Below are positions 1 to 19,048 of a stretch of DNA of 19,900 nucleotides, piece after piece. The position numbers were made by a program, and so were the translations under genes. The stretch is from Candidatus Hodarchaeota archaeon (GTDB taxonomy: Archaea > Asgardarchaeota > Lokiarchaeia > Sigyniarchaeales > SOKP01): NCBI GenBank assembly GCA_048887225.1, contig JBHLJY010000033.1, positions 1-19,900 on the forward strand. Reading direction: 5' to 3'. The notes beneath the pieces were generated by a model that searched no databases, was not told where the DNA came from, and was given only the letters and a program-made list of their open reading frames with translations. Numbering within the stretch: position 1 is the first letter of the stretch; each line of letters opens with the position of its first letter.

Positions 1-2
1 AT

Positions 3-1559
3 ATGGAAAAAATTGTTGTTGTGGATTTTGGTGGACAATATTGCCATCTCATCGCTAGAAGAGTAAGAGAGTTAGGTGTATTTACTGAAATTATACCGTA
101 TGATACAGATCTTAACAAATTAATAGAATTAAAACCCAAAGCAATAATTCTTTCAGGGGGACCTAACAGCATTTATGATGATAGAAGTCCAAAATTAAAG
201 AAAAACTTTTTTAGGTATATAATAAAAAATAAAATCCCTGTTTTAGGTATTTGTTATGGACATCACTTAATAATTCATCAACTTGGAGGTAAAATTGAAC
301 CCCACGATTATAAAGAATATGGAAAAACATATTTAGAAATTATAGAGAATGGTATATTATTGAAATCATTAAATCAAGATGAAATTGTATGGATGTCTCA
401 TGGAGATCAAATAACAGACCTTCCAAAAGGATTTAATCCTCTTGCTAAAACTAAGACTTGTCCAATAGCTGCTTATGGAAATGAAGGTAAAAAACTCTAT
501 GGTGTTCAATTTCATCCTGAAGTTGGTCATACATCAAAAGGAAAAAAAATTCTTGAAAACTTTATAGATATTGCTGGTTGTAATAGAGATTGGAAATTGG
601 AAAATTGGATTGATAAAGCAATCGAAAAGATAAAGAAAAAAGTAGGACCAAAAAAACGAGTTATTTTAGGATTAAGTGGAGGAGTTGATTCATCTGTCAC
701 CGCTATGCTATTTCATAAAGCAATCGATGATAGATTACATTGCATTTTTGTAAATAACGGTGTGCTTCGTAAAAATGAAGAGAATGAAGTTCAAGATACG
801 TTCCGTGATAAATTAGGATTCTCTAACTTTCATTATATAAATGCAGAAGAATTGTTTTTAGACAGATTAAAAAATATAGATGATCCCGAAGAAAAACGTA
901 AAATTATTGGATTTACATTTATCGAAGTTTTCGAAAAGAAAACAATAGAATTAGAACAAAAATACCCTAATATAAAATATCTAGCACAAGGAACCATTTA
1001 TCCAGATAGAATAGAAACTGCTGCTATAAGTAAATCAGCAGCAAAAATTAAATCCCACCATAATCTAACTTTACCGGATGATATGACGCTTGAAATAATT
1101 GAACCACTTAAAGATTTATATAAGGATGAAGTCAGACAAATTGGCTTAAAATTAGGACTTTTTGAAGACATAATTTATCGTCATCCATTTCCAGGACCAG
1201 GGCTTGCGGTTAGAATATTAGGAGTTATTGATAAGGAAAGATTAGATATTTTAAGAGATGCAGATACAATACTCATTGAAGAAATAAAGAAAGCGGGAAT
1301 ATATAAAATATTATGGCAAGCTTTTTGTGTATTTTTGCCATTGAAAACAGTTGGAATTATGGGTGATTATCGCACTTATGATTATATATGCTCAATTAGA
1401 ATCGTCGAGTCTCTTGATGCCATGACAGCTAATTTTGCTAAAATTAATTGGAATTTATTAGAAAGAATTGGAACTCGTATTGTGAATGAAGTCAGAGGAA
1501 TTAATCGAGTTGTCTATGACATTTCGAACAAACCACCAAGTACAATAGAATATGAATAA
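3..1559 (+). CDS. guaA: GMP synthase (glutamine-hydrolysing), fused class I GATase + ATP-pyrophosphatase domains
   Basis: N-terminal VVDFGGQY, SGGP, catalytic LGICYG, VWMSHGD and QFHPEV; PP-loop LSGGVDSS; AQGTIYPD, IKSHHN, RHPFPGPGLAVR; C-terminal KPPSTIEYE. The start lies at the window edge. Confidence 0.98.
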   Translation: MEKIVVVDFGGQYCHLIARRVRELGVFTEIIPYDTDLNKLIELKPKAIILSGGPNSIYDDRSPKLKKNFFRYIIKNKIPVLGICYGHHLIIHQLGGKIEPHDYKEYGKTYLEIIENGILLKSLNQDEIVWMSHGDQITDLPKGFNPLAKTKTCPIAAYGNEGKKLYGVQFHPEVGHTSKGKKILENFIDIAGCNRDWKLENWIDKAIEKIKKKVGPKKRVILGLSGGVDSSVTAMLFHKAIDDRLHCIFVNNGVLRKNEENEVQDTFRDKLGFSNFHYINAEELFLDRLKNIDDPEEKRKIIGFTFIEVFEKKTIELEQKYPNIKYLAQGTIYPDRIETAAISKSAAKIKSHHNLTLPDDMTLEIIEPLKDLYKDEVRQIGLKLGLFEDIIYRHPFPGPGLAVRILGVIDKERLDILRDADTILIEEIKKAGIYKILWQAFCVFLPLKTVGIMGDYRTYDYICSIRIVESLDAMTANFAKINWNLLERIGTRIVNEVRGINRVVYDISNKPPSTIEYE

Positions 1560-1696
1560 TCAAACCTACAATAATGATTAAAAATAAGATAAAAAATGAA
1601 TTTAATAATTTCCCGAGTAAATCTATTTTCTAACTTGTTCAATAAAAGAAGAATAAAAATAAATTATTAAGATTGATCTACATTATTAGATGAGAA

Positions 1697-4297
1697 ATGG
1701 ACGAGTTATCTTTTAGTACCGGAATACCTTCATTGGATCAAATCTTACATGGAATCAAACCAGGAGATAATGTTGTTTTTCAAGTTGATTCCATAGATGA
1801 CTATGTTCCCTTTGTTCACGCCTTTTGTAATGATAATGATAAAAATGATCGTGTGTTGGTATATTTTCGGTTTGCTGAACATGAATCATTAATCCCCAAA
1901 GAAATTAGCGCCGAGATATTCGAGCTTAAACCAGAACAGGGATTTGAACATTTCATTGATGAAATACTAAAAGTAATTGAAAAGTTTGGACGTGGTGCAT
2001 GTTATGTTTTTGATTCTTTAAGTGAACTAGCTGTGGACTGGTATAGTGATAGGATGGTTGCGAATTTCTTCATGCTAACATGCCCTTATCTTTTTGATTT
2101 TGAAACGGGAACCTATTTCGCTTTGTTGAGAAACCGTCATAGTCAATATACTATATCAAGGATACATGAGACTGCTCAAATTATTCTAGATATTTATAAA
2201 AAAAGGGGAATATTCTTTTTACAACCATTAAAAGTATGGAAACGGCACTCACCAACAATGTATATGCTACATGCGATGAAAGACGATTTTTTAATTCCAG
2301 TTATTAGAAGCGCAGAAGTTTCTGAAATTTTAGCGGAATATGCTCAGCCATGGGTGGATTTTACTACTAAAATCCAAGATATATGGGCACAGACTTTTAA
2401 TCAAGCGTATGAATTGTTAAGAGAGTTTGAGCATGATAGGTGTGATTTTACTGATTTAGAAAAATTAAAAGATAAGATAATTAGAATGGCAATAACGCGG
2501 GACCCAAAATTATTTAAAAGTGTAAAAAATTATTTTGATTTAAAAGATCTGATTGATATAGGGCGCCGAATGATTGGAACTGGACTAATTGGTGGGAAAT
2601 CAGTGGGGATGCTATTAGCTCAAGCAATATTAAAAAAGGCCAATCCTAAATGGGATAAGAAACTGGAAAGGCATGACTCATTTTTTATAGGTTCAGATGT
2701 TTTTTATACCTATCTAGTTATTAATGGTTGTTGGTGGATAAGATATAAAATTCGGAAGAGTGAAAATTTTCTTGATTTAGCGTCTCAAGCTCGTGAAATT
2801 TTGGAAAACGGAAAGTTTCCTGATGATATTATAGAACAATTTAAAAATATGCTTAATTATTTTGGACAATCGCCAATTATAGTAAGAAGCAGTAGTTTGT
2901 TAGAAGATGCTTATGGTAACGCTTTCTCGGGTAAATATGATAGTATATTTCTTGCGAATCAGGGTAATCCTGAAGAAAGACTTGAGGAATTTATCAATGC
3001 TGTAAGAAGCGTATATAAGAGTACTATGAGCAAAAGGGCATTGATTTATCGTGCTATACGAAATCTTTTAGATCAAGATGAACAAATGGCAATTTTAGTT
3101 CAGCGTGTTTCTGGATCTCCTTATGGAGATTTATTTTTTCCTCAATTAGCAGGTGTAGGATATTCTTTTAATCCATACATTTGGAATAAGGATATTAAAC
3201 CTGAAGCTGGTTTAATTCGATTAGTTTTTGGTTTAGGCACTAGGGCAGTTGAGAGATATGACGATGATTACACTCGAATTGTGGCCTTGAGTGCTCCAGA
3301 TAAAAGACCTGAAGCCTCGTTTGATGAAAAACAAAAATTCAATCAAAGAAAAGTTGATTTACTCCATTTGAAAAAAAATGAATTTATTACAAGATATTTT
3401 GATGAAGTGATATTAGAATCTACTATTTTACCCATAGATTTTTTTGGGAGCAGAGATTATGAATCAGAAGCTAATTTCAGGAATCGTGGGAGGGAAAAAA
3501 TTATTTATTTCCTTGATTTGGACAAAAATATTATAAAAAGCGGAATAATAAATGATATGAGAGAAATTTTGCAGACCCTTTCTAATGTATATGAGTATCC
3601 AGTGGACATAGAGTTTACGATCAATTTTTTCGATGAATCCAAATATAAGATTTACATTCTTCAATGCCGCCCTTTTCAAGTAAAAAGTGGAACTGAAATA
3701 TTTGAAAAACCAGAGGATATTAAAGCTGAAGATATAATTTTAAAAACAAATGGTCCAATCATTGGACAGGGAATTGCTAAAAATGTTGATATCCTAATCT
3801 ATGTTGTGCCTGAGTATTATGGAAAGTTAGATAATCGTGAACGATATGCTATAGCACGCATTATTGGAAGATTAAATGTAATATTTAAATATTCGGATAA
3901 AAAAACAATCTTTCTTGCTGGACCTGGACGTTGGGCAACAACACAACCTTCACTCGGCGTACCAGTTGAGTTTCAAGATATTAATAGAGTATCAATTATC
4001 TGTGAAATTGCTGAGATGCATGAGAATTTATCTCCTGATGCGTCATTAGGAACTCATTTTTTTAACGATCTTGTTGAAAATGATATGCTCTATATGGCAA
4101 TTAATCCAAAAATGAAAATGGGAATTCTTAATAAAGAAAAATTAAATAATATGCCAAATAAATTTTTAGAATATTTGCCTGATGCTAATAAATATGATAA
4201 TATTATAAAGGTGATTGAACTCACGGAAGATGAAAAGAAAATAATAAAAATTTATGCAGATCCTGTCGAGCAAGTTGCAATTTTATATTTGGAATGA
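1697..4297 (+). CDS. PEP synthase/PPDK N-terminal (ATP-grasp) domain protein with a degenerate KaiC/RecA-like N-terminal domain; lacks the pyruvate-binding C-terminal barrel
   Basis: ATP-grasp motifs IGGKSVG, IIVRSSSLLEDAYGNAFSGKYDS, MAILVQ, VFGLGT, PVDIEF and IYILQCRP. N-terminus STGIPSLDQILHGI...VFDSLSEL resembles RAD55/KaiC folds without an intact P-loop. C-terminal GPGRWAT...GTHFF. Confidence 0.8.
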   Translation: MDELSFSTGIPSLDQILHGIKPGDNVVFQVDSIDDYVPFVHAFCNDNDKNDRVLVYFRFAEHESLIPKEISAEIFELKPEQGFEHFIDEILKVIEKFGRGACYVFDSLSELAVDWYSDRMVANFFMLTCPYLFDFETGTYFALLRNRHSQYTISRIHETAQIILDIYKKRGIFFLQPLKVWKRHSPTMYMLHAMKDDFLIPVIRSAEVSEILAEYAQPWVDFTTKIQDIWAQTFNQAYELLREFEHDRCDFTDLEKLKDKIIRMAITRDPKLFKSVKNYFDLKDLIDIGRRMIGTGLIGGKSVGMLLAQAILKKANPKWDKKLERHDSFFIGSDVFYTYLVINGCWWIRYKIRKSENFLDLASQAREILENGKFPDDIIEQFKNMLNYFGQSPIIVRSSSLLEDAYGNAFSGKYDSIFLANQGNPEERLEEFINAVRSVYKSTMSKRALIYRAIRNLLDQDEQMAILVQRVSGSPYGDLFFPQLAGVGYSFNPYIWNKDIKPEAGLIRLVFGLGTRAVERYDDDYTRIVALSAPDKRPEASFDEKQKFNQRKVDLLHLKKNEFITRYFDEVILESTILPIDFFGSRDYESEANFRNRGREKIIYFLDLDKNIIKSGIINDMREILQTLSNVYEYPVDIEFTINFFDESKYKIYILQCRPFQVKSGTEIFEKPEDIKAEDIILKTNGPIIGQGIAKNVDILIYVVPEYYGKLDNRERYAIARIIGRLNVIFKYSDKKTIFLAGPGRWATTQPSLGVPVEFQDINRVSIICEIAEMHENLSPDASLGTHFFNDLVENDMLYMAINPKMKMGILNKEKLNNMPNKFLEYLPDANKYDNIIKVIELTEDEKKIIKIYADPVEQVAILYLE

Positions 4298-4346
4298 TTT
4301 TTTTAAAATTTATTATTAATATATCCAATATATATTTTTTTTTCTG
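4298..4346 (+). terminator. Oligo-T tract, putative archaeal intrinsic terminator
   Basis: T7 run directly after the TGA stop at 4297 and a T9 run near 4335-4343. Confidence 0.4.
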
Positions 4347-4434
4347 AATGTTTTTCATTTTTTTTATAATTTAGTGAAATCTTTTTGGTTTCTCTTCTAA
4401 GAATTGTTAGTTTGTATTGAAAAAGTTAAAAAAA

Positions 4435-4451
4435 CAAAACATTTTTATATG
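4435..4451 (+). promoter_or_regulatory. Putative BRE/TATA promoter of the hdrBC-gltB operon
   Basis: A-rich caaaac followed by tttttatatg, roughly 75 nt upstream of the inferred coding start. The AT-rich background limits specificity. Confidence 0.35.
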
Positions 4452-4524
4452 GTATAGTAATATAATTAAATAAAGATAATATAACTCTGCTTGGAAAATA
4501 TAACCTTGTAAGAAGTGATGGAAA

Positions 4525-5874
4525 ATAACAATTCAGCAAGAAATTGTATTATTTCCAGGATGTATGATATCGTATCGTTTGCCTTTTATCGAAGTGTCAA
4601 TTAGGAAAGCGTTAGAATTTTTTGGAATCCAATTTAGTGAAAACTCAAAATTTTCATGTTGCCCTGAGCCAAATGGTATAAAAAATTCAGATGAATTAAT
4701 TTATTCAATTACGGCGGCAAGAAATTTAGCTCTTGCTGAGAATGATAATAGGAGTATTTTAACCCCATGTAACGGTTGTTTTGAAACTTTAAAAGGGATT
4801 AGATCTGAAATAAGATCTGATTTACACTTTCAAGATAAAATAAACTCATACCTTTTGAAAATAGATTTAAAAGCTATTGGAAAAAGTGACGTTTTCCATT
4901 TAGTTGAATTCTTTCATAATTTAGGAGGGGATACTATAAAAGATAATATAAAATATCCCTTAACAGGATTACGTGTCGCTGTTCATTATGGATGTCATTT
5001 TCTTAGACCGAGTAATAAAATACAAATGGATGATCCAATGGAGCCCCATATTTTCGATGAATTAATTACTGATTTGGGTGCAAAAAGCGTCGAATATGAC
5101 AGAAAAATGGATTGCTGTGGCGGAAGTTTGGCAAGGGCAGATAATCCTGATTCAGGAATGGAAATGATTCATACTAAATTGGAAATAATGAAAGAAAGGA
5201 GAATTGATTGTATTGTTGTGGGTTGTCCACAATGTTTTATTCAATTTGACCATATACAACAAGATTTAAAGAAATTAGATTATGAGTACGATATTCCTGT
5301 GTTGTATTATTCAGAATTATTATGTATTGCTTTAGGTATCGATATAAGGGATATAATAAAAAGATATCATAGAACTCCAGTGGATAAAATCTTCGAAAAA
5401 GTGGATTTAATTCATGAGAAGAATGAGGTAATAAAACAATATTTCGATTTAGAATTTTTAAAAAAATGTTATGGATGCGGAGCATGTAATAATGATTGCC
5501 CCGTAGCTAAAATAACGACATTTGACCCTAATATAATAGTTAAAAAAATTTTAGAAGGGAAAATTGATGAATTATTGAAAGATCCATCCATATGGATGTG
5601 TCTTGATTGTTACGTATGCTATGAACTTTGTCCAATGAGGGTTGGATTAGTCGAAATATTTACAATCTTACGAAATTTGGCAAAAGAAAGAGGTTTTATA
5701 ACAAAAGGTTTTGAAGGAGAATATAATTCCTTCAAAAAAATGGGGACTGTTACATTGTTCTCACATTCTGCTAGAAAAAGAGTAGGGCTATTATCTAAAA
5801 AACCTCAGCTTGATGATTTAAAAAAAATGCTTAATGAACTTCAAATTAAAAAAGAATTGGAGGAAAAAAGTTAA
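4525..5874 (+). CDS. hdrBC: Heterodisulfide reductase-like HdrB-HdrC fusion (two CCG domains followed by a 2x[4Fe-4S] HdrC-like domain); true start lies upstream of the ORF-track ATG at 4564
   Basis: CCG motif 1 is C-X31-CC-X35-CNGC, whose first Cys (IVLFPGC, TGT at 4561) precedes ATG 4564. CCG motif 2 is HYGC-X39-CCGG...GCPQC. C-terminal CYGCGACNNDCP and IWMCLDCYVCYELCP are HdrC-type. Start coordinate is uncertain (ATA 4525, ATT 4531, or frameshift from ATG 4518). Confidence 0.9.
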   Translation: MTIQQEIVLFPGCMISYRLPFIEVSIRKALEFFGIQFSENSKFSCCPEPNGIKNSDELIYSITAARNLALAENDNRSILTPCNGCFETLKGIRSEIRSDLHFQDKINSYLLKIDLKAIGKSDVFHLVEFFHNLGGDTIKDNIKYPLTGLRVAVHYGCHFLRPSNKIQMDDPMEPHIFDELITDLGAKSVEYDRKMDCCGGSLARADNPDSGMEMIHTKLEIMKERRIDCIVVGCPQCFIQFDHIQQDLKKLDYEYDIPVLYYSELLCIALGIDIRDIIKRYHRTPVDKIFEKVDLIHEKNEVIKQYFDLEFLKKCYGCGACNNDCPVAKITTFDPNIIVKKILEGKIDELLKDPSIWMCLDCYVCYELCPMRVGLVEIFTILRNLAKERGFITKGFEGEYNSFKKMGTVTLFSHSARKRVGLLSKKPQLDDLKKMLNELQIKKELEEKS

Positions 5875-5876
5875 AA

Positions 5877-7070
5877 ATGAGATGGGAGAATTATACAAGC
5901 CCTTCTAAAAAATTTAGAAATGAAAGAGTTTTTGATGGATGTGGGATAACAGGATTTATAAATATTGATGGAACTCTCTCGAAAGGAGAAAAAATCATAG
6001 ATATGTTGAGTATTTTGCATGATCGAGAAAATGGCCTTGGTGCAGGATTCGCGGGATATGGAATATATCCTCAATATAAAAATTTCTATGCATTCCATTT
6101 TCTGTTCGATAATGATAAAATTAGATCAAATGTAGAAGATTTTCTTGTATCAAAAGGAGTCATAATTTATTCTGAGCCAATTCCTACAAAAAAGTCCTCT
6201 AATGTTGATAATCCTCCTCTTACTTGGCGAATATTTTTCGATCCAAAAGAAAGAAAGAGTATATCTCCAGATGAACAAATTGTTCAATTAGTAATGGAAA
6301 TAAATGAAAAAATAGATGGAGCTTTTGTTATGTCTTCAGGAAAAAATATGGGTGTTTTTAAGGGTAATGGATGGTCCCATGAGATTGCTGAATATTATAA
6401 TTTAAAAGATTATGGAGCATATATGTGGTTAGGACATAGTCGTTTTCCTACAAACACACCAGGATGGTGGGGGGGAGCTCATCCATTTAATTTATTAGGA
6501 ACTTCGGTAATTCATAATGGTGAGATAACCTCTTATGGAACAAATATGAGATATTTAGAGTCTTTTGGCTATAAATGTACCCTATTTACAGATACAGAAG
6601 TCATCGCATATTTATTTGATTTATTAGTTAGAAGACATAATATTCCAATTCCTATTGCTAGCTTAGCTTTGGCTCCCCCACTTTTTAATGAAATTGAAAG
6701 AATGGATAAGAAATTTCAACTTGCTCTTAAAAATATCAGAGCCACTTATCGATCTGCTATGTTAAACGGTCCTTTTTCTATTGTGGTTGGGCAAAATGAT
6801 CCAATACCGACTCTAATTGGATTATCAGATAGAAAAAAATTAAGACCTTTAGTTGCTGCAATATCAGACCATGAAAATACTGTTTATCTGAGTAGTGAGG
6901 AAGCTTCATTTAAAAGATTAATGTTAGATACAAAAAATTCTTATAAATTCAAAGAGATTTGGCATCCTAAAAGCGGAACTGCTGTTGTAGCTAGATTAGG
7001 AGATGGACTTCTTCGAAATGGTCTTGAAACGCCATTTGAAAATTTAGAATTATCTGTAATAGGTGTTTAA
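5877..7070 (+). CDS. gltB1: Glutamate synthase glutamine amidotransferase subunit (class II/Ntn GATase, GltB domain 1)
   Basis: Propeptide then DGCGITG (Cys nucleophile after processing); RENGLGAGFAGYGIYP, GHSRFPTNTPGWWGGAHPF, HNGEITSYG, TDTEV, LNGPFS, DRKKLRP. Starts 2 nt after the hdrBC stop. Confidence 0.9.
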   Translation: MRWENYTSPSKKFRNERVFDGCGITGFINIDGTLSKGEKIIDMLSILHDRENGLGAGFAGYGIYPQYKNFYAFHFLFDNDKIRSNVEDFLVSKGVIIYSEPIPTKKSSNVDNPPLTWRIFFDPKERKSISPDEQIVQLVMEINEKIDGAFVMSSGKNMGVFKGNGWSHEIAEYYNLKDYGAYMWLGHSRFPTNTPGWWGGAHPFNLLGTSVIHNGEITSYGTNMRYLESFGYKCTLFTDTEVIAYLFDLLVRRHNIPIPIASLALAPPLFNEIERMDKKFQLALKNIRATYRSAMLNGPFSIVVGQNDPIPTLIGLSDRKKLRPLVAAISDHENTVYLSSEEASFKRLMLDTKNSYKFKEIWHPKSGTAVVARLGDGLLRNGLETPFENLELSVIGV

Positions 7071-7073
7071 AAA

Positions 7074-8594
7074 ATGTCTGTAAGTCATATTGTACCAACA
7101 TACTTTAGAGTAAATATTGATAGAGATTATTGTAAGAAATGTAAAAGATGTGTTCAGCATTGTAGTTATGGAGCTTTGAGTTTTAACGGAGAACGTATCA
7201 TTGCTGATGATACAAAATGTATTGCCTGTCAAAGATGTGTTACTATGTGCCCTGGTAAAGCAATTCAAGTTGTTCAAAATGAATCCTATTTGCCTCCTCA
7301 TGGACATTATACAAGAAGGATTCGTAATATAATTTGGGCTCAATCTGGTAATGGTGGAGTTTTACTTTCCGCTACTGGAAATGATAGACCAATCAGAACT
7401 ATATTTGATGATTTACTCCTCGATGCTTGTCAGGTTACAAATCCAGCAATAGACCCATTAAGAGAAACAATAGAGACTAAAGTGTTTTTTGGTCGGAAAC
7501 CAAGTAAACTTGAATTTTTGATGGATGAGAAGGATCCTGCAAAGGTGTCCTTAAAAACAGAATTCTATCCACATTTTGAGATTGATATGCCTATCATGGT
7601 AGGTCATATGAGCCTTGGCTCAATTAGTTATAATGCATGTATGGCCATATATCAAGCAGCAAAAGAACTAAATATTCTTTCAGGTTCTGGGGAAGGTGGT
7701 TTACATCCTGATTTTTATGAATACGGTCCAAATATTATTTCGGAAGTAGCTTCTGGCCGATTTGGAGTGGATGTTAATTATTTACATAATGTGGCAGGAT
7801 TAGAGATTAAAATTGGACAGGGTGCGAAACCAGGACATGGTGGACACTTGCCTGGTGAGAAAGTAAATAGCCTAATCTCTCAAACAAGAATGATCCCTAA
7901 AGGGTCGGATGCTCTTAGTCCTTACCCTCATCATGACATATATTCTATTGAGGATCTCGCACAATTAATAGCAGCATTAAAAGAGGCAACCCGGTATAGC
8001 GTTCCAGTTGGAGTAAAGATTGCTGCTGTCCATAATTCCGCACCTATAGCGATAGGCATTGTTCGGGGAGGGGCAGATTTCTTAACTCTTGATGGAATGA
8101 GAGGGGGTACTGGAGCAGCACCGAGAATTATTAGAGATCATGCTGGTATCCCAATTGAGTTAGCAATAGCTTCAGTAGACAGGAGATTGCGGGAAGAAGG
8201 GCTAAGAGATGAGATAACTCTTGTGGCAGGTGGTTCAATAAGGTATTCGGCAGATTTAATTAAAGCAATAGCGTTAGGTGCTGATGTAGGAATGTGTGCG
8301 TTACCTGTTTTAATTGCAATGGGATGTCGAGTTTGTCAGCAATGTTTTAGAGGCCTATGCTCATGGGGAATTGCAACACAACAAGAGTATCTTGTTAAAA
8401 GGCTCGATATTGATGTAGCAAGGAATCGTCTCATAAACCTTTTTCATAGCTGGAATGAAGAATTAAAAGAAGTGTTAGGAGCAATGGGAATTGATTCTGT
8501 CGAATCTCTTCGGTCAAATAGAGATAGATTAAGATATATTGGCCCAAATCCAAAAATTGCTGAAATATTAGGAGTAAAACATGCGGGAGAGTGA
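7074..8594 (+). CDS. gltB2: Archaeal-type glutamate synthase FMN subunit with N-terminal 2x[4Fe-4S] ferredoxin domain (GltB domain 2)
   Basis: CKKCKRCVQHC and CIACQRCVTMCP; MSLGSIS, SGEGG, VASGRFGV, EIKIGQGAKPGHGGHLPGEKV, PHHDIYSIEDL, DGMRGGTGAAP; Fe-S motif GCRVCQQCFRGLCSWG. Confidence 0.95.
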   Translation: MSVSHIVPTYFRVNIDRDYCKKCKRCVQHCSYGALSFNGERIIADDTKCIACQRCVTMCPGKAIQVVQNESYLPPHGHYTRRIRNIIWAQSGNGGVLLSATGNDRPIRTIFDDLLLDACQVTNPAIDPLRETIETKVFFGRKPSKLEFLMDEKDPAKVSLKTEFYPHFEIDMPIMVGHMSLGSISYNACMAIYQAAKELNILSGSGEGGLHPDFYEYGPNIISEVASGRFGVDVNYLHNVAGLEIKIGQGAKPGHGGHLPGEKVNSLISQTRMIPKGSDALSPYPHHDIYSIEDLAQLIAALKEATRYSVPVGVKIAAVHNSAPIAIGIVRGGADFLTLDGMRGGTGAAPRIIRDHAGIPIELAIASVDRRLREEGLRDEITLVAGGSIRYSADLIKAIALGADVGMCALPVLIAMGCRVCQQCFRGLCSWGIATQQEYLVKRLDIDVARNRLINLFHSWNEELKEVLGAMGIDSVESLRSNRDRLRYIGPNPKIAEILGVKHAGE

Positions 8595-9424
8595 AAAAAT
8601 TGATAAATAGTCATTTAATATTAAGTAAAGAGGATAAAAAAACTGTAGAAATAGATGCATGTCCAAATGGAGAACCATTAATTTATCAAGATTTAAATGA
8701 AGAAATTCACAAAGCTAAAAATAACGGATATGATAGATTAATTTTGAATAATGTTTGTGGACAAAGGTTCATTGCTGCCTCTATACAAGGAGATATTGAA
8801 ATTATTATAAATGGAGTTCCTGGAAATGATTTAGGTGTTTTTATGGATGGCCCTAAAATTATTGTCAATGGGAATTGCGAAGATCAAACAGGAAATACAA
8901 TGAATGATGGTTTTGTGATAATTGACGGGGATGGCGGGGATGTCATTGGCTTATCTGCAAGAGGAGGTAAAATCTATGTTAAAAAAGATGTTGGCTATAG
9001 AGTTGGAATTCACATTAAAGAATATGAACTTAAATACCCAACTATAATTATTGGAGGAACAGCAAAAGATTTTTTAGGAGAGTATATGGCAGGGGGTATG
9101 GTAATAGCTCTTGGTCTAAGATATTTACCTAATGGTACTGTGGCTGAAACTGATCAACCGATATGCGGTAATGAGTTAGGTACTGGGATTCATCGAGGTA
9201 AAATTTTTTTAAGAACAGATGAGGATTTAACACAAAAATTAGGAGTAGGAGCAAAAATTTTTGAAATTAATGAAAATGAGAGTAAAGAAATCGAGGTCTA
9301 TTTGAGAGAGTTTTGTGAGATTTTTAATATTCCATTTGAACTCATGTGGGCTAAACCGTTTAAAGTAATTAAACCAATTTCAAAAAGACCTTATGGTGGC
9401 AATTACTGTGGACAATATATATAG
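8591..9424 (+). CDS. gltB3: Glutamate synthase GXGXG beta-helix subunit (GltB domain 3 / FwdC-like)
   Basis: GQRFIA, GVPGNDLGVFMDG, GNTMNDG, RGGKIYV, VGYRVGIHIK, DFLGEYMAGG, GTGIHRG. GTG start overlaps the gltB2 stop (GTGA). Confidence 0.9.
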   Translation: MKKLINSHLILSKEDKKTVEIDACPNGEPLIYQDLNEEIHKAKNNGYDRLILNNVCGQRFIAASIQGDIEIIINGVPGNDLGVFMDGPKIIVNGNCEDQTGNTMNDGFVIIDGDGGDVIGLSARGGKIYVKKDVGYRVGIHIKEYELKYPTIIIGGTAKDFLGEYMAGGMVIALGLRYLPNGTVAETDQPICGNELGTGIHRGKIFLRTDEDLTQKLGVGAKIFEINENESKEIEVYLREFCEIFNIPFELMWAKPFKVIKPISKRPYGGNYCGQYI

Positions 9425-9478
9425 TAAAATCTTAATTTAATTCTAATTTAAAATTTTTTTCCAAAAGCAATTTATAGT

Positions 9479-11011
9479 TTATTCATGCATTATTCTTGAA
9501 TTTTTTATTGAATTTTCAATTACGGCTAATTTATCAACTGATTTAAGAGGATAGTCTCCTGTTAAACATGCCAGACATAATTGATCTTTTCTTAATCCAA
9601 TTGATAGAATTAAATCATCTATCATTTGATATATTAGTGTATCAGCGCCTAGCATTTTTCTAGTCTCTTCAATATAATCCTTTCCAAATAATTTCAGGGA
9701 TCTACTAGCAATTAATTCATCCTTAGAGGGAAAATCAATCCCCATATAGCATGCGCTTATAATGGGAGGGCAACTAATTCTTAAATGGACAGCTTTTGCA
9801 CCGCCCTTTTCTTTTAACAAAGAAACAATTTGACTTGTAGTTGTACCTCTCACAACGGAATCATCAATTAGAATTACTTCTTTCCCCTGAATAACACTTC
9901 TTATTGGATTTAATTTTTCCTTAACAGCTGCCTTTCTTCGTTTTTGACCTGGCATTATAAAAGTCCTCCAAACATATCGATTTTTCATTAATCCCTCAAC
10001 ATAAGGTAATCCAGCTTCTTTTGCGTAACCTACAGACGCACTACGACCTGAATCAGGAACAGGAACTACTATGGCATTTTCTTTCATATTAGAGTCTAGC
10101 AAATATGGATCTCGTTTTGCTAAATATTTGCCTAATCTAAATCTAGCTTCAGCAACAGAAACTCCATCAATAATGGAATCTGGGCGTGCAAAATATACAA
10201 ACTCAAATTGACATAATGCTCCTCTTTTTTCTTTTAAAATTATTTCAGAATGAATATTTTCTTTAATGCTTAAATGAATGATCTCTCCAGGTTTAACGTC
10301 TCTTAAGAAAGATCCACCGACTGCATCAATAGCACATGATTCTGAAGCAATATAATACAAATTTCTTTTCTCTGTTTTTGACTCACCAATACATAAAGGC
10401 TTAAATCCGAGAGGATCTCGTATAGCATAAATATCGCCTTTTGGAGTCAATAAAATTAAAGAATATGAGCCTTCAAGATAATTGCTTGCTTTTTTTAAAA
10501 CTTCTGCCCAATCTTCTGTTTCTAAAGCAATTGATGCTATTAATTGACTAACAACTTCAGTATCTGTATTTGTTATAAAAACTCGCCCCATTTCATTTAA
10601 TTTTTCTTTAATCTCATCATAAACTGGTATCGTTCCATTGAAGGCTAAAGAAAATTCAAGCACATTATTCTTAAAATGATAGGGTTGTATATAATCAGAT
10701 GATGAGAATTCAGATGCCCCTGTGGTTGCATATCTATTATGTCCAATTCCAATATTGCCCCAAAAATGAGATTGAATTTTTTCATTTAAAACTTGAGAAA
10801 CTAATCCTTTCTTTTTATAAGTGAAAATTTTACCACCCGTTTGAAATATCGAAATACCAGCTGATTCTTGCCCTCGGTGTTGTAAAGCAATTAATCCTTG
10901 ATACAATAGTTGAGATACAGAATAGCTAATATCATCACAAATAACCCCGAAGACAGCACATTGCTCTAAGAGCTTATCTCTCGTATTATTATTTTTTTTT
11001 TTTAAATGCAT
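9479..11011 (-). CDS. purF: Amidophosphoribosyltransferase (Fe-S type, with N-terminal propeptide)
   Basis: EQCAVFG, LQHRGQESAGI, GHNRYATTG, RDPLGFKPL, CQFEFVYFARPDS, VPDSG, PRPP motif IDDSVVRGTT, CYMGIDFP, CLACLTGDYP. Confidence 0.97.
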   Translation of the reverse strand: MHLKKKNNNTRDKLLEQCAVFGVICDDISYSVSQLLYQGLIALQHRGQESAGISIFQTGGKIFTYKKKGLVSQVLNEKIQSHFWGNIGIGHNRYATTGASEFSSSDYIQPYHFKNNVLEFSLAFNGTIPVYDEIKEKLNEMGRVFITNTDTEVVSQLIASIALETEDWAEVLKKASNYLEGSYSLILLTPKGDIYAIRDPLGFKPLCIGESKTEKRNLYYIASESCAIDAVGGSFLRDVKPGEIIHLSIKENIHSEIILKEKRGALCQFEFVYFARPDSIIDGVSVAEARFRLGKYLAKRDPYLLDSNMKENAIVVPVPDSGRSASVGYAKEAGLPYVEGLMKNRYVWRTFIMPGQKRRKAAVKEKLNPIRSVIQGKEVILIDDSVVRGTTTSQIVSLLKEKGGAKAVHLRISCPPIISACYMGIDFPSKDELIASRSLKLFGKDYIEETRKMLGADTLIYQMIDDLILSIGLRKDQLCLACLTGDYPLKSVDKLAVIENSIKNSRIMHE

Positions 11012-11468
11012 AATATCTTTTTGTATGAGAGAGATATTTTAATTATTAAAAAATAATTTCAATTAAAATAAATGATTTATATTTTATAATAATTAGTTTA
11101 ATAGAGTATTAATCCGCAACTAAAACATTATTTCGAAAATATTATATTGATTATATTCATTATATTTTAATGAAATTTATTATTTTCTCTAATCAAATTG
11201 AGGAAATATTGTATCTACTATATTTTGTGCTAAATTAAATACTCTTGTACAAATAGATATGTTGTATATGGCCATATTTTGTTATTTTTATTAGTTGTCG
11301 AAATGTTTTATAATTTAGAAATTCTTTTTTCTGGTTTTTTGTATGATTTTCTCAACGAAAAATCTATACTAAATAAAATAAAATCTATTAAATATACAAA
11401 ATAGATTTATATTTTTCATTAATTTATTTTAGATTAATTTCTTTGAAAATTACTAAATAACAACGAAT

Positions 11469-12701
11469 ATGGCTAAGGAAGAGAATTTATATGAGAATAG
11501 AAGCCAACAAGAGGCTTCAAAATTTCTTAAAGTTATAATATTTTTACTTTTTGGATTTGGCCCTGTAATGGGGAATGTCATTTTAGTTTTATTTGGAGTA
11601 CTTTCTAAAGAATTCAATGTTACACCGAGTAATATATTAATTGCAATCCCCGCATTCATGTTTCCTTTCTCATTTATTCAACTTTTTTCGGGTGCTATAT
11701 CCGATGTTAAGGGTCGATTTCCCGTTATTTTATTTGGATTAGTAGTATTCGGTATGGGAATGATTATTGCCGCAACATCTTTATCGTTATTAATGTTTGT
11801 AGTTGCAAATATATTAGGAGGGTTTGGTTTTGGATTTGTTAATCCAGTTTTAATAGCTTTAATAACTGACATTTCTAAGGGGCCTGAGATTCCTAAGAGG
11901 ATTGGTTATCTTGGAGCTGTAGCTAATCTTGGAGTTGGATTAGGTCCTTTATTAGCTGGACAAATGATTGTAGTTGGATGGCGTTATCTTTATGTAATTT
12001 TTGTCTTAATAACTATTTTTTCTTTTATAGTATTAATTACTATAAAACAACCTCCTCAAAAAACAGATAAAAACGCTGGTCTCCGTTTGTTTTTTACACA
12101 CCTTCATAAAGAAATACGCCGCCCTCTTGTAATTCTAATGATATTGTCAGCATTTTTAACATCACAAACTTATTTAGCTACGTTGATTTGGAGTTCAAGA
12201 GCATTTACAGGAGCTGTAAATGAAGCTGTTGTTGGATTAATTCTTTTTATTGTGGGAGTTGTTGCTGCAATTTCAGGAATCGTGGGAGGACATCTTATCA
12301 AGAAAAAAGGTGTAGGCATTGCTTTATTTCTTGGATTGCTATCATTATTGATTGGAGTCTCATTGTTGCTTATCTTAGGTGATATTACTCATTCCAAATT
12401 ACTTATTTATGTTGCAATAGGTCTGATAATCGTGGCAGTCGCAGGAGGAATGCTTTTTCCTACTGTTACATATTATAGTCAAATCTTTTCTCCAGAACGG
12501 CGCGGTGCTCTTGCTGGGTTGGCAACAGCAGGATATTTTATAGGAATTGCCTTAGTGCCCTTGACATACACCCCCTTCTTCAATTTTGGAGGGATAACAG
12601 CAGTTTATAGGGGAATCCTTATGGTAACAATATTACTCATCTTTTCTGTGGGATTGCTTTATATCTTGGTAAAACGCCAGCATAAAATTATTTTAAATTA
12701 A
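11469..12701 (+). CDS. MFS transporter (drug:H+ antiporter-like), substrate unknown
   Basis: About 12 hydrophobic segments; motif A GAISDVKGRFPV; motif C-like LGVGLGPLLAG; second-half ERRGALAG. Confidence 0.88.
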   Translation: MAKEENLYENRSQQEASKFLKVIIFLLFGFGPVMGNVILVLFGVLSKEFNVTPSNILIAIPAFMFPFSFIQLFSGAISDVKGRFPVILFGLVVFGMGMIIAATSLSLLMFVVANILGGFGFGFVNPVLIALITDISKGPEIPKRIGYLGAVANLGVGLGPLLAGQMIVVGWRYLYVIFVLITIFSFIVLITIKQPPQKTDKNAGLRLFFTHLHKEIRRPLVILMILSAFLTSQTYLATLIWSSRAFTGAVNEAVVGLILFIVGVVAAISGIVGGHLIKKKGVGIALFLGLLSLLIGVSLLLILGDITHSKLLIYVAIGLIIVAVAGGMLFPTVTYYSQIFSPERRGALAGLATAGYFIGIALVPLTYTPFFNFGGITAVYRGILMVTILLIFSVGLLYILVKRQHKIILN

Positions 12702-12716
12702 TTTAAAGTAGTAAAA

Positions 12717-13259
12717 ATGCAAAAATACGTATTGAAGTGGCAAATTTTAGGAATTATATTTATATTCTTTCTTGGAGTTATTCTACATTTTTTATTTGAG
12801 TGGTCAGGCTCTTTTTACCCCATTGGTGCAATAGCTGCTGTAAACGAGAGTGTATGGGAACATTTAAAATTAGGATTTTGGCCATTAATATTCTTCGCAC
12901 CTATTGAATACAAATTTATAAAGGAACAAATAAACAATTTCATATTGGCAAAAACTATCGCTGCGTTTATAATTCCAATTTTTATCGTTGTAGTTTTTTA
13001 TTCGTATACAGCGATTCTTAGAATTGAATTATTAATAGTTGATATTCTAATTCTTCTCATCGCTATTGTAATTGCCCAATTTGTTAGTTATAAAATTTTG
13101 ATTTTGAATCAATTTCCGAAATATGTTTCAATCGCGGCTTTGATTGCGATTATCTTTTTAGCTTCTTTATATGTAATTTTTACTTATTATCCTCCTCATT
13201 TGCCTATCTTTCAAGATTCGCAGACAGGTCTATATGGGATTACAGCGCATACGCATTAA
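12717..13259 (+). CDS. Membrane protein, DUF6512-like
   Basis: HFLFEWSG...AVNESVWEHLKL signature and C-terminal FTYYPPHLPIFQD; several TM helices; starts 15 nt after the MFS gene. Confidence 0.7.
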   Translation: MQKYVLKWQILGIIFIFFLGVILHFLFEWSGSFYPIGAIAAVNESVWEHLKLGFWPLIFFAPIEYKFIKEQINNFILAKTIAAFIIPIFIVVVFYSYTAILRIELLIVDILILLIAIVIAQFVSYKILILNQFPKYVSIAALIAIIFLASLYVIFTYYPPHLPIFQDSQTGLYGITAHTH

Positions 13260-13321
13260 AATATCGTGTATTATTTGATACGTTAGTATCTTTCTTACTT
13301 GTAATGAAAGAAAAGATGAGT

Positions 13322-14296
13322 TTATATATTAAATGAAGTAATAACATCTCCTATTTTAAGAAAAATTTGGTAGTTTCTACCATATTTTTCCCTAAACATA
13401 ATAAATTTCTCGGAAGTTTTATAGGCGAGCCACATAAATTCACGAAAATGAGGATTCGAGTTCTTATTAAGAGCGTCAAATATAATTTCGTCCTTAGATT
13501 TTAATTTTTCTTCACACTTTACCTCAAACCATTCTACATAATCGGCTCCTTTGATTTCATACCAATAATCATCTTCTCTATAATCATTTATCTCTTTTTC
13601 CCATTTATTGAGATTTTCGGTTATATCATATATATTACCGTCGATATTAAGCACTACTTGCTTATTTTCAAAGTCGTGCATTATTCCAACAATGAAATCG
13701 AAAATAATTCCATATTTATTTACTAAGTTTTTTAGCCAAGATGAGAGAGAAGTTTGTAAGTTAGCATTGATCCATTGTTTTGGAGCAGTTTCCTTTACAA
13801 ATTCTTTTGGTGAAATGAAATCTTTCTGCTCCTTAGTTTCTATTGTTCTATCCCCTATTTCTAATTTATCTTTACTATCTGCGAATTCTTCTTCCATAAT
13901 CTTTCTAAACTCGGGATCCTTCTTCTCAAAAGGTATATCTTCAGTTCCAGTATATATGTCTGAAGAATTTTCATTTTTAGAAAGACTGAGAAATGAGACA
14001 ATTGCATTCAAGACCTCGACAACGGAATTATCTTCATAGCTAACTTTAAAATCTCCTGTGTCGAATTCATTTAAAATCTTTTTTAATTCGGGTTTAGCTT
14101 CTTCAATATCAATTTCCTCAGTTTCAGAACTTATATCAGGTCGAAGAAGTTTTTTATAAAGGCTAAGGAAAGAAACAATGGCATTTGAAACTTTAGAAAT
14201 TGAATTATCTTCAAAGCTTACTTTAAGATTGTTATTTTGAAATTTTTTCTTAATAGGCGATTCATCACGTTCAAAATGTCCTGATCTTGAAAACAT
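13322..14296 (-). CDS. Hypothetical protein with a tandem 59-aa N-terminal duplication
   Basis: 324-aa open frame, acidic and soluble; internal repeat KVS(F/Y)EDNS...NAIVSFLSL. Confidence 0.75.
   Translation of the reverse strand: MFSRSGHFERDESPIKKKFQNNNLKVSFEDNSISKVSNAIVSFLSLYKKLLRPDISSETEEIDIEEAKPELKKILNEFDTGDFKVSYEDNSVVEVLNAIVSFLSLSKNENSSDIYTGTEDIPFEKKDPEFRKIMEEEFADSKDKLEIGDRTIETKEQKDFISPKEFVKETAPKQWINANLQTSLSSWLKNLVNKYGIIFDFIVGIMHDFENKQVVLNIDGNIYDITENLNKWEKEINDYREDDYWYEIKGADYVEWFEVKCEEKLKSKDEIIFDALNKNSNPHFREFMWLAYKTSEKFIMFREKYGRNYQIFLKIGDVITSFNI
13889..14242 (-). repeat. Intragenic tandem repeat, 2 x 177 nt (59 aa)
   Basis: aa 25 KVSFEDNSISKVSNAIVSFLSL...PELKKI aligns with aa 84 KVSYEDNSVVEVLNAIVSFLSL...PEFRKI. 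Confidence 0.85.
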
Positions 14297-14430
14297 TACT
14301 TATCCCATGCAATTTTTTTTTAAATTCAATTCTATAATTATCATTACGAAGTAATTTAAAGAAAAATACATATATTATGAACATAATATCTGCTTAGTTT
14401 CTAAGAGTGAATCTTTATCAGGAGTAAAAA

Positions 14431-14742
14431 CTAAAGAAATTCTTCTTTTAATATGGATATTAATATTTCTTTTTCTTCATTACTACATTTTTTTAAATCA
14501 GTGCCAAGAGAACTATATAAATCTGGAGGAGCTGAACGGTTAAATAAAGATAATACAAATACAAGAGCATTTTCAACAAATGCTTGATCATTGCTTTGTC
14601 TCAGTATTTTCATTAAGCTAATAATTGATTTGTTTTTACAATCTTCCAGTTTCTGATAATCATGTTTATTCCTTAAGTAACAATCAATAATCTTATTATA
14701 ACAATTTGACTTGTCGCTAATCATAGAATTTTCTAAACTCAC
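14431..14742 (-). CDS. Small hypothetical helical protein (GTG start)
   Basis: 103-aa ORF filling the gap between neighbours on the same strand; no recognised motif. Confidence 0.6.
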   Translation of the reverse strand: MSLENSMISDKSNCYNKIIDCYLRNKHDYQKLEDCKNKSIISLMKILRQSNDQAFVENALVFVLSLFNRSAPPDLYSSLGTDLKKCSNEEKEILISILKEEFL

Positions 14743-14932
14743 TTTTAAATTTCAATAAATTAAACTCTTTAACTTTCTATTGAAAAAATGTTATATTATA
14801 CGAATATGATATCCATATATTATTAGTTAAAGGATTCTGGAAAATCGACAGATTTCGCTAAAATTTATTAAATTTTTTCTTAGATTTTAATCTTTATTTG
14901 GTTTAAAAAAAAGGAGATTTTTTTTATTATTT

Positions 14933-15610: not shown

Positions 15611-15635
15611 ATAATTTTAACTTCATATTTTTTAA

Positions 15636-16127: not shown

Positions 16128-16150
16128 TATTTAATATATGATCATTCAAA

Positions 16151-16158
16151 TATTTAAA
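16151..16158 (-). promoter_or_regulatory. TATA box (TTTAAATA) of the Lrp/AsnC gene; likely leaderless transcript
   Basis: Reverse complement of tatttaaa lies about 24 nt upstream of the ATG at 16127. Confidence 0.55.
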
Positions 16159-16279
16159 ATTATTTACATTGTCCAGAAAAATTTTCAAGACTGGCAGAAT
16201 GATCAGTTTACGAATTTTCATAAATTTTTGCCTGGTCATTTGTCCATTATTATAAATTCATATCCCATATATGATCACA

Positions 16280-16287
16280 TTTAAATA
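16280..16287 (+). promoter_or_regulatory. TATA box (TTTAAATA) of glnA
   Basis: Consensus archaeal TATA; predicts a transcription start near 16310, upstream of ATG 16332. Confidence 0.55.
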
Positions 16288-16331
16288 CTATTATGGTTTA
16301 TATGATCATAAAAAAAGAAATATTGATTGAT

Positions 16332-17687
16332 ATGATTGAAAAAGATGATCCAAATCGCTGGAAAATATGCGATAAAGTAATTGAGACTGTAAAAGAACAA
16401 GACATTAAATTTATTTATCTCCAATTCACTGATATCCATGGTATTATTAAATCTTTTGAAATTAATGCTAACAGAGTAGAAGATTTCTTACAAGATGGAG
16501 AAAATTTTGATGGTAGTTCGATTACTGGTTATGGTGCTATAGAAGAATCAGATAAAGTAGCGGTTCCTGATCCAAGCACTTTTTGCATAATTCCATGGAG
16601 GAAAGATAAGAATGTAGCTAGATTTTTTAGTGATATATATAATCCTGACGGTTCCCGTTATGATGGCGATCCCAGATATATACTTCAAAAAGCCGTGAAG
16701 AAAGCAAGGAAACATGGATATGAGTATTTTTGTGCTCCTGAACTAGAATTCTTTATTTTAGAAAAAACTACAACAGAACAAGCATTTAGTCCATCAGACA
16801 TGAGAGGGTATTTTGACTATGATCCTTATGATATTAATGAAAGAATGAGATTTACGTTTGCTGAATATTGCGATGCTATGGGTATCGAGATAGAAGTGCT
16901 GCACCACGAAGTTGCTCTTGGACAACACGAGATAGATTTCAAGTATGGACCAGTAATAGAAACTGCAGACAATACTAATACAATAAAAATGATTGTAAAG
17001 ACTGTAGCAGCCCAGAACAACATGACTGCAACCTTTATGCCAAAACCATTTGCGGGAATAAATGGGTCAGGAATGCATGTTCACCAGTCTCTATGGAAGG
17101 ATGGTAAAAATGTATTTTATGATGATTCTGACAAAGATTATATCTCTCATATGATGAAAAAATGGATTGCTGGGCAATTAAAACATGCAAGAGCAATGTG
17201 TGCTGTTCTAAGTAGCTGGCCAAATTCATATAAAAGATTAGTCCCCGGCTTTGAAGCACCGGTTTATGTTGCATGGGGTTTTAGAAATAGATCTCCTCTA
17301 ATTCGAGTTCCTAATTTTGGAGGAAAGCCAAATGCAGCGAGATGTGAGATTAGATGTCCAGATCCAGCGGGAAATCCATACCTACAATTTGCTGTTCTAT
17401 TATCAACAGGTTTAGATGGTTTATTAGCTGAAGATATTGAAATTCCAGAACCAACCGACCTTAATGTATATCATTTATCAACAAAAGAGTTGTTAAAATC
17501 AGGAATTATTTCATTACCTGGCAGTCTCAGCGAAGCCCTTAAGGAATTTCAGTCGTCTGAATTCATGAAAGAAGTATTTGGTGAAGACCCATTTAAAAAT
17601 TTCCTTTATGCCAAGCTAGAAGAAAATGATGCATTCCGTGTTGTAGTAAGCGAGTGGGAACGAGATAGATATATTACAAGGTTATAA
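16332..17687 (+). CDS. glnA: Glutamine synthetase type I (GSI-alpha-like); ORF track starts at 16293 but 16332 is more likely
   Basis: QFTDIHG, FDGSSI, APELEFF, HHEVALGQHEI, TFMPKP, NGSGMHVHQS, SYKRLVPGFEAP, NRSPLIRVP, RCEIRCPDPAGNPY. Confidence 0.95.
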   Translation: MIEKDDPNRWKICDKVIETVKEQDIKFIYLQFTDIHGIIKSFEINANRVEDFLQDGENFDGSSITGYGAIEESDKVAVPDPSTFCIIPWRKDKNVARFFSDIYNPDGSRYDGDPRYILQKAVKKARKHGYEYFCAPELEFFILEKTTTEQAFSPSDMRGYFDYDPYDINERMRFTFAEYCDAMGIEIEVLHHEVALGQHEIDFKYGPVIETADNTNTIKMIVKTVAAQNNMTATFMPKPFAGINGSGMHVHQSLWKDGKNVFYDDSDKDYISHMMKKWIAGQLKHARAMCAVLSSWPNSYKRLVPGFEAPVYVAWGFRNRSPLIRVPNFGGKPNAARCEIRCPDPAGNPYLQFAVLLSTGLDGLLAEDIEIPEPTDLNVYHLSTKELLKSGIISLPGSLSEALKEFQSSEFMKEVFGEDPFKNFLYAKLEENDAFRVVVSEWERDRYITRL

Positions 17688-19029: not shown

Positions 19030-19048
19030 TTTAAGCGTTTTGTAGCGC

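Follow-up and report, generated by a model that had tools for sequence, protein, structure and literature searches.

Few enzymes of central metabolism are as well studied as glutamate dehydrogenase (GDH) and glutamate synthase (GOGAT). Their genes are nevertheless accompanied, in Asgard archaea, in Methanomassiliicoccales and in no fewer than 15 bacterial phyla, by that of a large and highly conserved ATP-using protein with no assigned function. What is this companion, and does it act as a regulator or as an enzyme? We approached the question through one gene, at positions 1697..4297 on the plus strand of a 19,900-nucleotide stretch from a Candidatus Hodarchaeota archaeon (assembly GCA_048887225.1, contig JBHLJY010000033.1, positions 1 to 19,900), hereafter called the window. 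The open reading frame (ORF) list, the translation and full-length homologues agree that it encodes 866 amino acids and a stop codon. The protein has the three parts that a first-pass annotation of the DNA had proposed: an N-terminal domain of KaiC/RecA fold, an ATP-grasp domain of the type present in pyruvate phosphate dikinase (PPDK) and phosphoenolpyruvate (PEP) synthase, and a C-terminal domain carrying a conserved histidine, His787. It is a member of a widespread and uncharacterized family, for which we use the name half-dikinase. We infer that its gene probably marks an ATP-dependent control or step in nitrogen assimilation. That the protein autophosphorylates on a histidine and acts at the node where 2-oxoglutarate is converted to glutamate is, judged by analogy with related systems, a proposal to which we give slightly better than an even chance.

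As a regulator, the half-dikinase would represent a PII-independent, phosphohistidine-based control at the point where carbon and nitrogen metabolism meet in anaerobes; as an enzyme, it would bring a further reaction into glutamate metabolism. In either case the family brings two new domain types, a KaiC fold without P-loop that has a putative conserved pocket and a probable swivel domain of divergent form, and it corrects thousands of "pyruvate phosphate dikinase" annotations, which skew the metabolism reconstructed for uncultured anaerobes, Asgard archaea among them. New here are the likeness of the C-terminal domain to phosphohistidine domains, the GDH link of a sister family that has no KaiC-like domain, the count of neighbor switches, the prevalence figures, the placement of the Asgard sequences on the family tree and the precedent offered by VadK.

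Contrary to the first-pass annotation, the protein is no orphan: clustering at 90% leaves more than 8,000 full-length homologues, and clustering at 50% gives 3,446 representative matches, 718 of the latter below E 1e-30. Full-length homologues are 49–83% identical to the Hodarchaeota protein, and the closest ones carry Promethearchaeota, Lokiarchaeota or Helarchaeota annotation, which marks the source as an Asgard archaeon. Full-length orthologues (49–69% identity) come from Asgard archaea and Methanomassiliicoccales as well as from many bacterial phyla, and those of many phyla retain 49–56% identity over the whole length. As far as our searches reached, no published paper or curated model describes this family: full-text literature searches yielded only the analogues VadK, HpeHI, MarK and rifampin phosphotransferase (RPH), and NCBIfam has no model matching the protein or the related architectures. 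PADLOC gave no defense-system match for the protein.

Association with genes of glutamate formation

Gene neighborhoods were compared in 80 loci from species-representative genomes, in which ORFs were called and clustered by BLASTP and recurrent clusters were annotated; the counts given here refer to the 77 loci in which a gene of the family was called, with flanks of up to 10 kb on each side. GltB, a GltD-like protein or GDH is encoded in 50 of the 77 loci and is the immediate neighbor in 34 (by type, GDH in 25 loci, GltB in 25 and GltD-like proteins in 29). A rough estimate of chance, taking about four target genes per genome of a few thousand genes and about 11 neighboring ORFs per locus, is near 1%, against the 65% observed. 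The loci represent at least 17 named phyla and vary in gene arrangement (same-strand, divergent and convergent), and therefore shared ancestry of one operon does not explain the association.

The first-pass annotation had put forward a link of this family to glutamate dehydrogenase genes in anaerobic bacteria. The GDH count bears this out, and the link reaches further, to glutamate synthase and to NrpR (10 loci), sigma-54/GAF activators (8), GSIII (7), Amt (6) and PII (4). Members of the glutamine amidotransferase group (GuaA, NadE, PurF, CarB and PyrG) are recurrent neighbors as well. Mapped on the family tree, the neighbor type is GDH in 24 cases, GOGAT in 24 and both in 2, and it changes at least 13 times; the link is therefore with the 2-oxoglutarate-to-glutamate node and not with one enzyme. 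The same switching speaks against any one protein, GltB or HdrBC for example, as the dedicated substrate.

In the window the gene lies, as had been noted, upstream of the glutamate synthase operon, on the same strand and 227–266 bp before hdrBC-gltB. This arrangement, directly upstream of a GOGAT of the HdrBC-type split form, occurs in none of the other loci sampled.

A sister family of about 780 residues, which has no KaiC-like domain, has gdh within the locus in 15 of 80 metagenomic loci, and most gaps measure 4–60 bp where gdh is the same-strand gene directly upstream. The GDH link therefore belongs to the core formed by the ATP-grasp and C-terminal domains, and the KaiC-like domain is an add-on. 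In 19 metagenomic loci (L140, L142, L144, L147–L153, L156–L158, L161, L162, L165, L166, L172 and L182) dnaN is found beside or near the gene of the sister family, directly upstream in nearly all of them; this adjacency is probably lineage-specific synteny.

Copy number varies at some loci. On the Candidatus Lokiarchaeum ossiferum chromosome (L054:9989–15328) three genes of the ELFV/GDH family come after two tandem family copies, which share 53% and 45% identity with the query. Similar co-expansions are seen at L071, with three copies and two gdh genes, and at L176.

ATP-grasp domain

The only Pfam family found in the protein is PPDK_N (PF01326, E 4e-50), at residues 297–670 (positions 2585..3706), and Foldseek and the alignment to 5hv6 and 8a8e support the same assignment. 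The closest structures to this domain are RPH (5hv3, E 1.3e-13), HpeI (9goj, E 1.7e-10) and PEP synthase (2ols). The family alignment shows conserved residues at K301, R397-S-S-S, E403-D404, S416, E639 and Q656-C-R658. In a phmmer alignment with the ATP-binding domain of RPH, R397 corresponds to Arg117 and S416 to Thr136, and the GGK301 motif matches Lys22; K301, R397 and S416 are invariant or nearly so across the half-dikinase family. In RPH-Lm, Lys22, Arg117 and Thr136 position ATP, as established by mutagenesis (PMC4844700). The Pfam match together with these conserved ATP-site residues upholds the earlier description of an intact ATP-grasp domain of the PEP synthase/PPDK type.

The remainder of the protein does not follow the PEP synthase or PPDK plan. 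The pyruvate-binding barrel, PEP-utilizers_C (PF02896), was not found, in agreement with the first-pass annotation, and the protein stops at residue 866, after a C-terminal domain of 190 residues. Nor is there a Pfam match at E ≤ 0.01 to the PEP-utilizers domain (PF00391), which has the G-G-x-T-S-H motif. Against the curated models of PEP synthase, PPDK and RPH the scores are 27–60 bits, where the cut-offs are 600–1,000: 60.5 bits against 739.75 for TIGR01418, 26.9 against 843 for TIGR01828, and 38 against 999 for NF041857 (rifampin phosphotransferase). The same genome encodes three full-length PPDK_N proteins with PEP-utilizers domains, so the half-dikinase is not needed for PEP synthesis.

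C-terminal domain and His787

The C-terminal domain, approximately residues 675–866 (positions 3719..4294), was modeled alone from 83 sequences with a predicted local distance difference test score (pLDDT) of 94.3. It has the motifs GPGRWAT at 742–748 and SLGTHFF at 783–789 that were read from the sequence at the outset, with the His787 codon at 4055..4057. An alignment of 83 sequences, with distant relatives and the sister family among them, shows no variation at G742, P743, G744, R745, G754, E770, S783, G785, H787 and F788. Conservation of His787 had been named as a test of the first-pass interpretation, and both the histidine and the S-x-G-[ST]-H motif are kept in 132 of 135 family members.

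From the model and an exhaustive VIA-align search, the domain is likely a divergent swivel domain, that is, a swivelling beta/beta/alpha fold with inserts. The top match is the phosphoryl-carrier domain of PPDK (2fm4, 117 residues aligned) at Z 6.0, a range that is common by the tool's own scale. The C-terminal domain of a Bacillus pyruvate kinase (2e28) follows at Z 5.7, and maize PPDK (383–512), RPH (758–867) and Enzyme I score Z 5.5 each, so that phosphohistidine-type domains make up five of the seven top matches. We grade the assignment as likely, and not higher, because Z values of this size are common and a profile-profile comparison was negative (see below). Weak Foldseek rows for the domain include the chaperonin apical domain, RraA and LeuD, all of which we take to be swivelling beta/beta/alpha folds in SCOP. 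Two further points favor a swivel domain: it comes directly after the ATP-grasp domain, and the phmmer alignment to PEP synthase 8a8e takes in the linker and ends at residue 395 of PEP synthase, presumably the point at which the PpsA swivel domain begins.

The invariant G742-P-G-R745 loop (positions 3920..3931, located from the alignment) comes right after the central strand of the domain. In the model, the first helix past this strand (residues 786–794) has His787 at its N-terminus, with G-T and a low-confidence loop before the histidine, and a segment of about 40 residues (745–784) is inserted between the central strand and the histidine. The canonical phosphohistidine sites of PPDK and Enzyme I have G-[TS]-H at a helix N-terminus with a flexible loop before it. 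The modeled His787 site resembles such a site, and together with its conservation in the alignment this makes His787 a candidate phosphohistidine. In RPH, Arg666 and Glu667 perform the second phosphotransfer (PMC4844700); the invariant R745/E770 pair near His787 recalls them, as an analogy only.

N-terminal domain

Residues 1 to about 215 (positions 1697..2341) form a domain of KaiC/RecA fold, followed by a linker of four helices at approximately residues 225–295 (positions 2369..2581), as seen in the secondary structure of the full-length AlphaFold model, which was built from 58 homologues (pLDDT 88, predicted template modeling score 0.88). Foldseek matched the modeled N-terminal domain to KaiC (7s65_B, E 1.8e-9), FlaH (4yds) and PH0284 (2dr3, E 3e-8), with probability 1.0 and E values from 1.8e-9 to 3e-8. 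In the PDB profile search 2dr3 was found at E 0.45, and no Pfam family, PF06745 included, matched the domain at E ≤ 0.01. The motifs STGIPSLDQIL (residues 7–17) and the Walker-B-like VFDSLSEL (residues 104–111) are present as first reported.

The P-loop is missing, as had also been reported: the Walker A motif G-x4-G-K-[ST] is found in none of 135 family members, and the corresponding position of the Hodarchaeota protein reads D-S-I-D-D-Y. Canonical ATP binding is therefore excluded for this domain. The first-pass annotation called the domain dead. The loss of Walker A stands, but "dead" is too strong a word, since conservation in this domain equals that of the catalytic domains. Invariant residues include D35/Y36, F59-A-[DE]-H62, D106/S109, R145/H148 and R183, and in the AlphaFold model they are placed at the C-terminal ends of beta-strands. 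Because this is where RecA-fold proteins bind nucleotide, the model suggests a putative remodeled ligand site.

Comparison with known systems

How does the half-dikinase compare with proteins of assigned function? VadK (Rv1127c) of Mycobacterium tuberculosis is a truncated, barrel-less PPDK described as a regulatory histidine (di)kinase, which autophosphorylates on His422 and binds enzymes of the methylcitrate cycle; its proposed mode is autophosphorylation and binding and not PEP production (PMC13400623). VadK and the half-dikinase both have a PPDK-type ATP-binding domain and a His-bearing domain and no PEP/pyruvate barrel. VadK differs in its length of about 490 residues, its canonical PPDK His domain (with His422) and the lack of a KaiC-like domain, whereas the half-dikinase has a strongly divergent C-terminal domain with inserts, an extra pseudo-KaiC domain and another metabolic context. 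The VadK gene presumably adjoins the methylcitrate-cycle genes prpDC, much as the half-dikinase gene adjoins genes of glutamate formation.

No structure matches the ATP-grasp domain better than RPH-Lm (5hv1, 5hv3, 5fbs; NF041857), whose Lys22, Arg117 and Thr136 have conserved counterparts. In both proteins a His-bearing domain, in the half-dikinase probably of swivel type, is C-terminal and not central, and the third domain is not a barrel. However, the RIF-binding domain of RPH-Lm is absent from the half-dikinase, and the Foldseek alignment to 5hv1 covers about 390 columns of the ATP-grasp domain only; the probable swivel domain of the half-dikinase is undetectable by sequence, and its extra domain is N-terminal and has a KaiC fold. 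HpeHI and MarK are two-component small-molecule dikinases (PMC12167813, PMC12624787). They show the ATP-grasp and swivel module recruited to non-pyruvate substrates, and HpeI (9goj) is near the ATP-grasp domain studied here; they differ in being split into two proteins, in having an RPH-like substrate domain and in serving aromatic catabolism, and nothing was found that ties the half-dikinase family to aromatics.

PEP synthase and PPDK (TIGR01418, TIGR01828) share the PPDK_N ATP-grasp domain with the half-dikinase, the linker into the next domain aligns, and its C-terminal domain comes closest in fold to the phosphoryl-carrier domain of PPDK (Z 6.0). They differ in having the PEP-utilizers_C barrel and the T-S-H carrier motif, and the half-dikinase scores far under their cut-offs. 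With KaiC, FlaH (ArlH) and PH0284 (PF06745) the N-terminal domain shares the fold, the STG.P.LD lead-in and the Walker-B-like FDSLS; it differs in the loss of Walker A, the lack of a Pfam match and the fusion to a dikinase core. Since defining features of each of the PEP synthase/PPDK, RPH and KaiC families were looked for and not found, the protein is not a member of any of them. By analogy it would work most like VadK or RPH.

Possible functions

We propose that the ATP-grasp domain may phosphorylate His787, with ATP converted to AMP and Pi as in PPDK and RPH. The C-terminal domain would then swing away from the ATP site and carry the phosphoryl group to a second site, either on a partner in trans or in the KaiC-like domain, whose former nucleotide pocket would have been remodeled for the purpose. 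The output would tune or assist glutamate formation, by GOGAT in this archaeon and by GDH or GOGAT elsewhere. On the analogy with VadK we tentatively favor a regulatory, metabolite-sensing role over a stoichiometric metabolic step, while rating that role as somewhat short of an even chance. It is favored because the family has an accessory distribution, which fits a modulator better than a core step; because the N-terminal domains are modular and vary around a constant core; because NrpR, PII, sigma-54 activators and histidine kinases keep it company; and because VadK provides a precedent. A role other than regulator or small-molecule dikinase is unlikely overall, although it keeps a substantial share of our estimate.

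Several observations weigh against a histidine-autophosphorylating regulator of this kind. Sequence identity of about 50% between domains of life would be expected of an enzyme sooner than of a signaling protein. A protein-specific regulator also sits uneasily with the alternation between GDH and GOGAT, which are structurally unrelated and switch at least 13 times. The gene in the window is probably its own transcription unit; the spacer at 4298..4563, as read from the sequence, is AT-rich, and we would expect separate transcripts because of the oligo-T runs just past the stop codon and the AT-rich TATA-like stretch, near 4443, before hdrBC. For the C-terminal domain, the VIA-align Z of 6 is weak and comes without sequence-level similarity to PEP-utilizers domains: Foldseek against the PDB returned nothing at E ≤ 0.001, and hhalign of the domain profile against 19 canonical His domains was negative (P 0.49). 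In the model, His787 matches a canonical phosphohistidine by the order of secondary structure elements only.

The main rival is a small-molecule dikinase, in which His787~P would be passed to 2-oxoglutarate, glutamate, glutamine or a similar metabolite, bound in the remodeled KaiC-like pocket or by the C-terminal domain itself, in the manner of RPH, HpeHI and PigC, which act on non-pyruvate small molecules. All characterized relatives with a PPDK_N-type ATP-grasp domain, VadK excepted, are such enzymes, and an enzyme would suit the very high full-length conservation, a switching of GDH and GOGAT neighbors that points to a shared metabolite and not to a shared protein, the same-strand gdh pairs with mostly short gaps in the sister family, and the invariant R745/E770 beside His787, which recalls the acceptor site Arg666/Glu667 of RPH. 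On the other hand, there is no known pathway that requires phosphorylated metabolites of the glutamate node beside GDH or GOGAT, only 5–13% of genomes per phylum carry the family, yet GDH and GOGAT are near-universal, and neither Pfam nor Foldseek revealed a recognizable substrate-binding domain of the known dikinases. We consider this rival unlikely, with a chance that is nonetheless real. A more speculative enzymatic role, for which we see a very slim chance, is an ATP-coupled step of ammonium assimilation, in which the half-dikinase would phosphorylate 2-oxoglutarate or an enzyme-bound intermediate as PEP synthase does with pyruvate, and so help amination to 2-iminoglutarate, the step common to GDH and the synthase site of GOGAT. 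If true, amination would become favorable at low ammonia, and anaerobes of both prokaryotic domains would have a third, ATP-driven route to glutamate beside glutamine synthetase-GOGAT and plain GDH.

Could the protein instead use ATP without any phosphohistidine? The ATP-grasp domain would then be a kinase, a ligase or a nucleotide-driven switch, the C-terminal domain a structural or binding module, and a KaiC-like ring might scaffold large glutamate-forming complexes. The C-terminal domain fails all the His-carrier sequence tests and its fold match is weak; moreover, KaiC-fold proteins are usually hexameric, and GDH, bacterial GOGAT and glutamine synthetase are hexamer-based assemblies too. 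But ATP-grasp domains of the PPDK_N type are known only together with a phosphohistidine domain (PPDK, PEP synthase, RPH, GWD, HpeHI and VadK), and the invariant G-[TS]-H of the half-dikinase family, placed where a helix starts and behind a flexible loop, agrees with the hallmark of such sites in PPDK and Enzyme I, which makes this reading improbable in our estimate. Least credible of all is an ordinary PEP synthase or PPDK that lies beside nitrogen genes by chance. Database records do carry the names "pyruvate, phosphate dikinase" or "pyruvate, water dikinase" and the PPDK_N domain is present, but the PEP/pyruvate barrel and the canonical His domain are both missing, the equivalog scores are 27–60 bits against cut-offs of 600–880, and the genome has three canonical full-length paralogues. 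Chance adjacency is opposed by a neighborhood enrichment of roughly 50-fold over our rough chance level, in at least 17 named phyla and in varied gene orders. Domain content effectively refutes this explanation, and the first-pass statement that the protein is probably not a PEP synthase holds.

Architectures, distribution and history

The core of ATP-grasp and C-terminal domains also occurs without the N-terminal domain (about 600 residues), with a different N-terminal region of about 170 residues (about 780 residues in total), with longer N-terminal extensions (about 920 and 1,060 residues) and as tandem duplications (1,480–1,650 residues). GPGRW and S-x-G-[TS]-H-F-F are kept in all of these core-family architectures. 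A search with the C-terminal domain for fused forms longer than 1,516 residues found none, which is weak evidence. At L071:14995–20094 a single ORF of about 1,700 residues, belonging to the family cluster, adjoins gdh; it is probably the tandem two-module form, as in P0181, P0191 and P0217. P0245, the one protein scanned from a size group that it shares with P0248, P0251 and P0258 (1,055–1,077 residues), gave a weak match after the C-terminal domain to a Pol-beta-type nucleotidyltransferase (E 9e-5, below the Pfam cut-off), the fold class of GlnD and GlnE.

Prevalence was counted at E ≤ 1e-50 for Asgard archaea and at E ≤ 1e-100 for bacterial phyla. The family was found in 7 of 151 Asgard genomes, 13 of 101 genomes of Spirochaetota, 6 of 101 of Planctomycetota and 13 of 101 of Fibrobacterota; it is thus accessory, in 5–13% of the sampled genomes per phylum. 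In one other genome of the same genus included in the Asgard search, no half-dikinase was found at E ≤ 1e-50.

A FastTree rooted with an outgroup splits the Asgard sequences into two basal groups, which lie outside a bacterial clade (98% Shimodaira-Hasegawa-like support), and the bacterial sequences group largely by phylum; all placements on this tree are provisional, given the method and possible effects of compositional bias. We considered a recent transfer from bacteria into this archaeon, but the position of the Asgard sequences does not support one. The Methanomassiliicoccales copies (L047, L049, L050 and L055) nest within Omnitrophota, a placement that suggests transfer from bacteria to archaea, and GDH and GOGAT are missing from the neighborhoods of these four loci.

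The window and the host genome

The genome has a low GC content (about 31%) and is 98% complete. The GOGAT of the window is its sole GOGAT, and an ELFV-family dehydrogenase of 397 residues is encoded elsewhere. A further gene of the GDH family is interrupted by a contig end (G000:C39:11918–12109), so that the GDH complement of the genome and its neighborhood are incompletely assembled. PII (PF00543) and NrpR (PF01995) gave no match in the 98%-complete genome, though GlnA, GOGAT and a glnA-adjacent Lrp are present. The NrpR operator GGAA-N6-TTCC was considered and dismissed: the window holds a single match where 0.53 would be expected, which carries no meaning, and NrpR itself was not detected in the genome.

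The window is a glutamine/glutamate gene cluster. Upstream of the half-dikinase gene lies guaA, for a glutamine amidotransferase, at 3..1559 on the plus strand, which recurs beside the family elsewhere. Domain scans place downstream of the half-dikinase gene an HdrB/HdrC-like fusion (4564–5874, plus strand), a three-piece glutamate synthase with amidotransferase, FMN and GXGXG parts (5877–9424, plus strand), a purF-like gene (9479–11011, minus strand), lrp (15636–16127), which is divergent from glnA, and glnA itself (16293..17687, plus strand). Two ORFs flanked by DUF6512 and lrp, of 324 residues (13322–14296, minus strand) and 225 residues (14933–15610, minus strand), have no NCBIfam match, and the longer one has no Pfam match either. 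The window also encodes an MFS transporter. The hdrBC frame seems to require a start upstream of its first ATG at 4564 (window positions 4511–4604).

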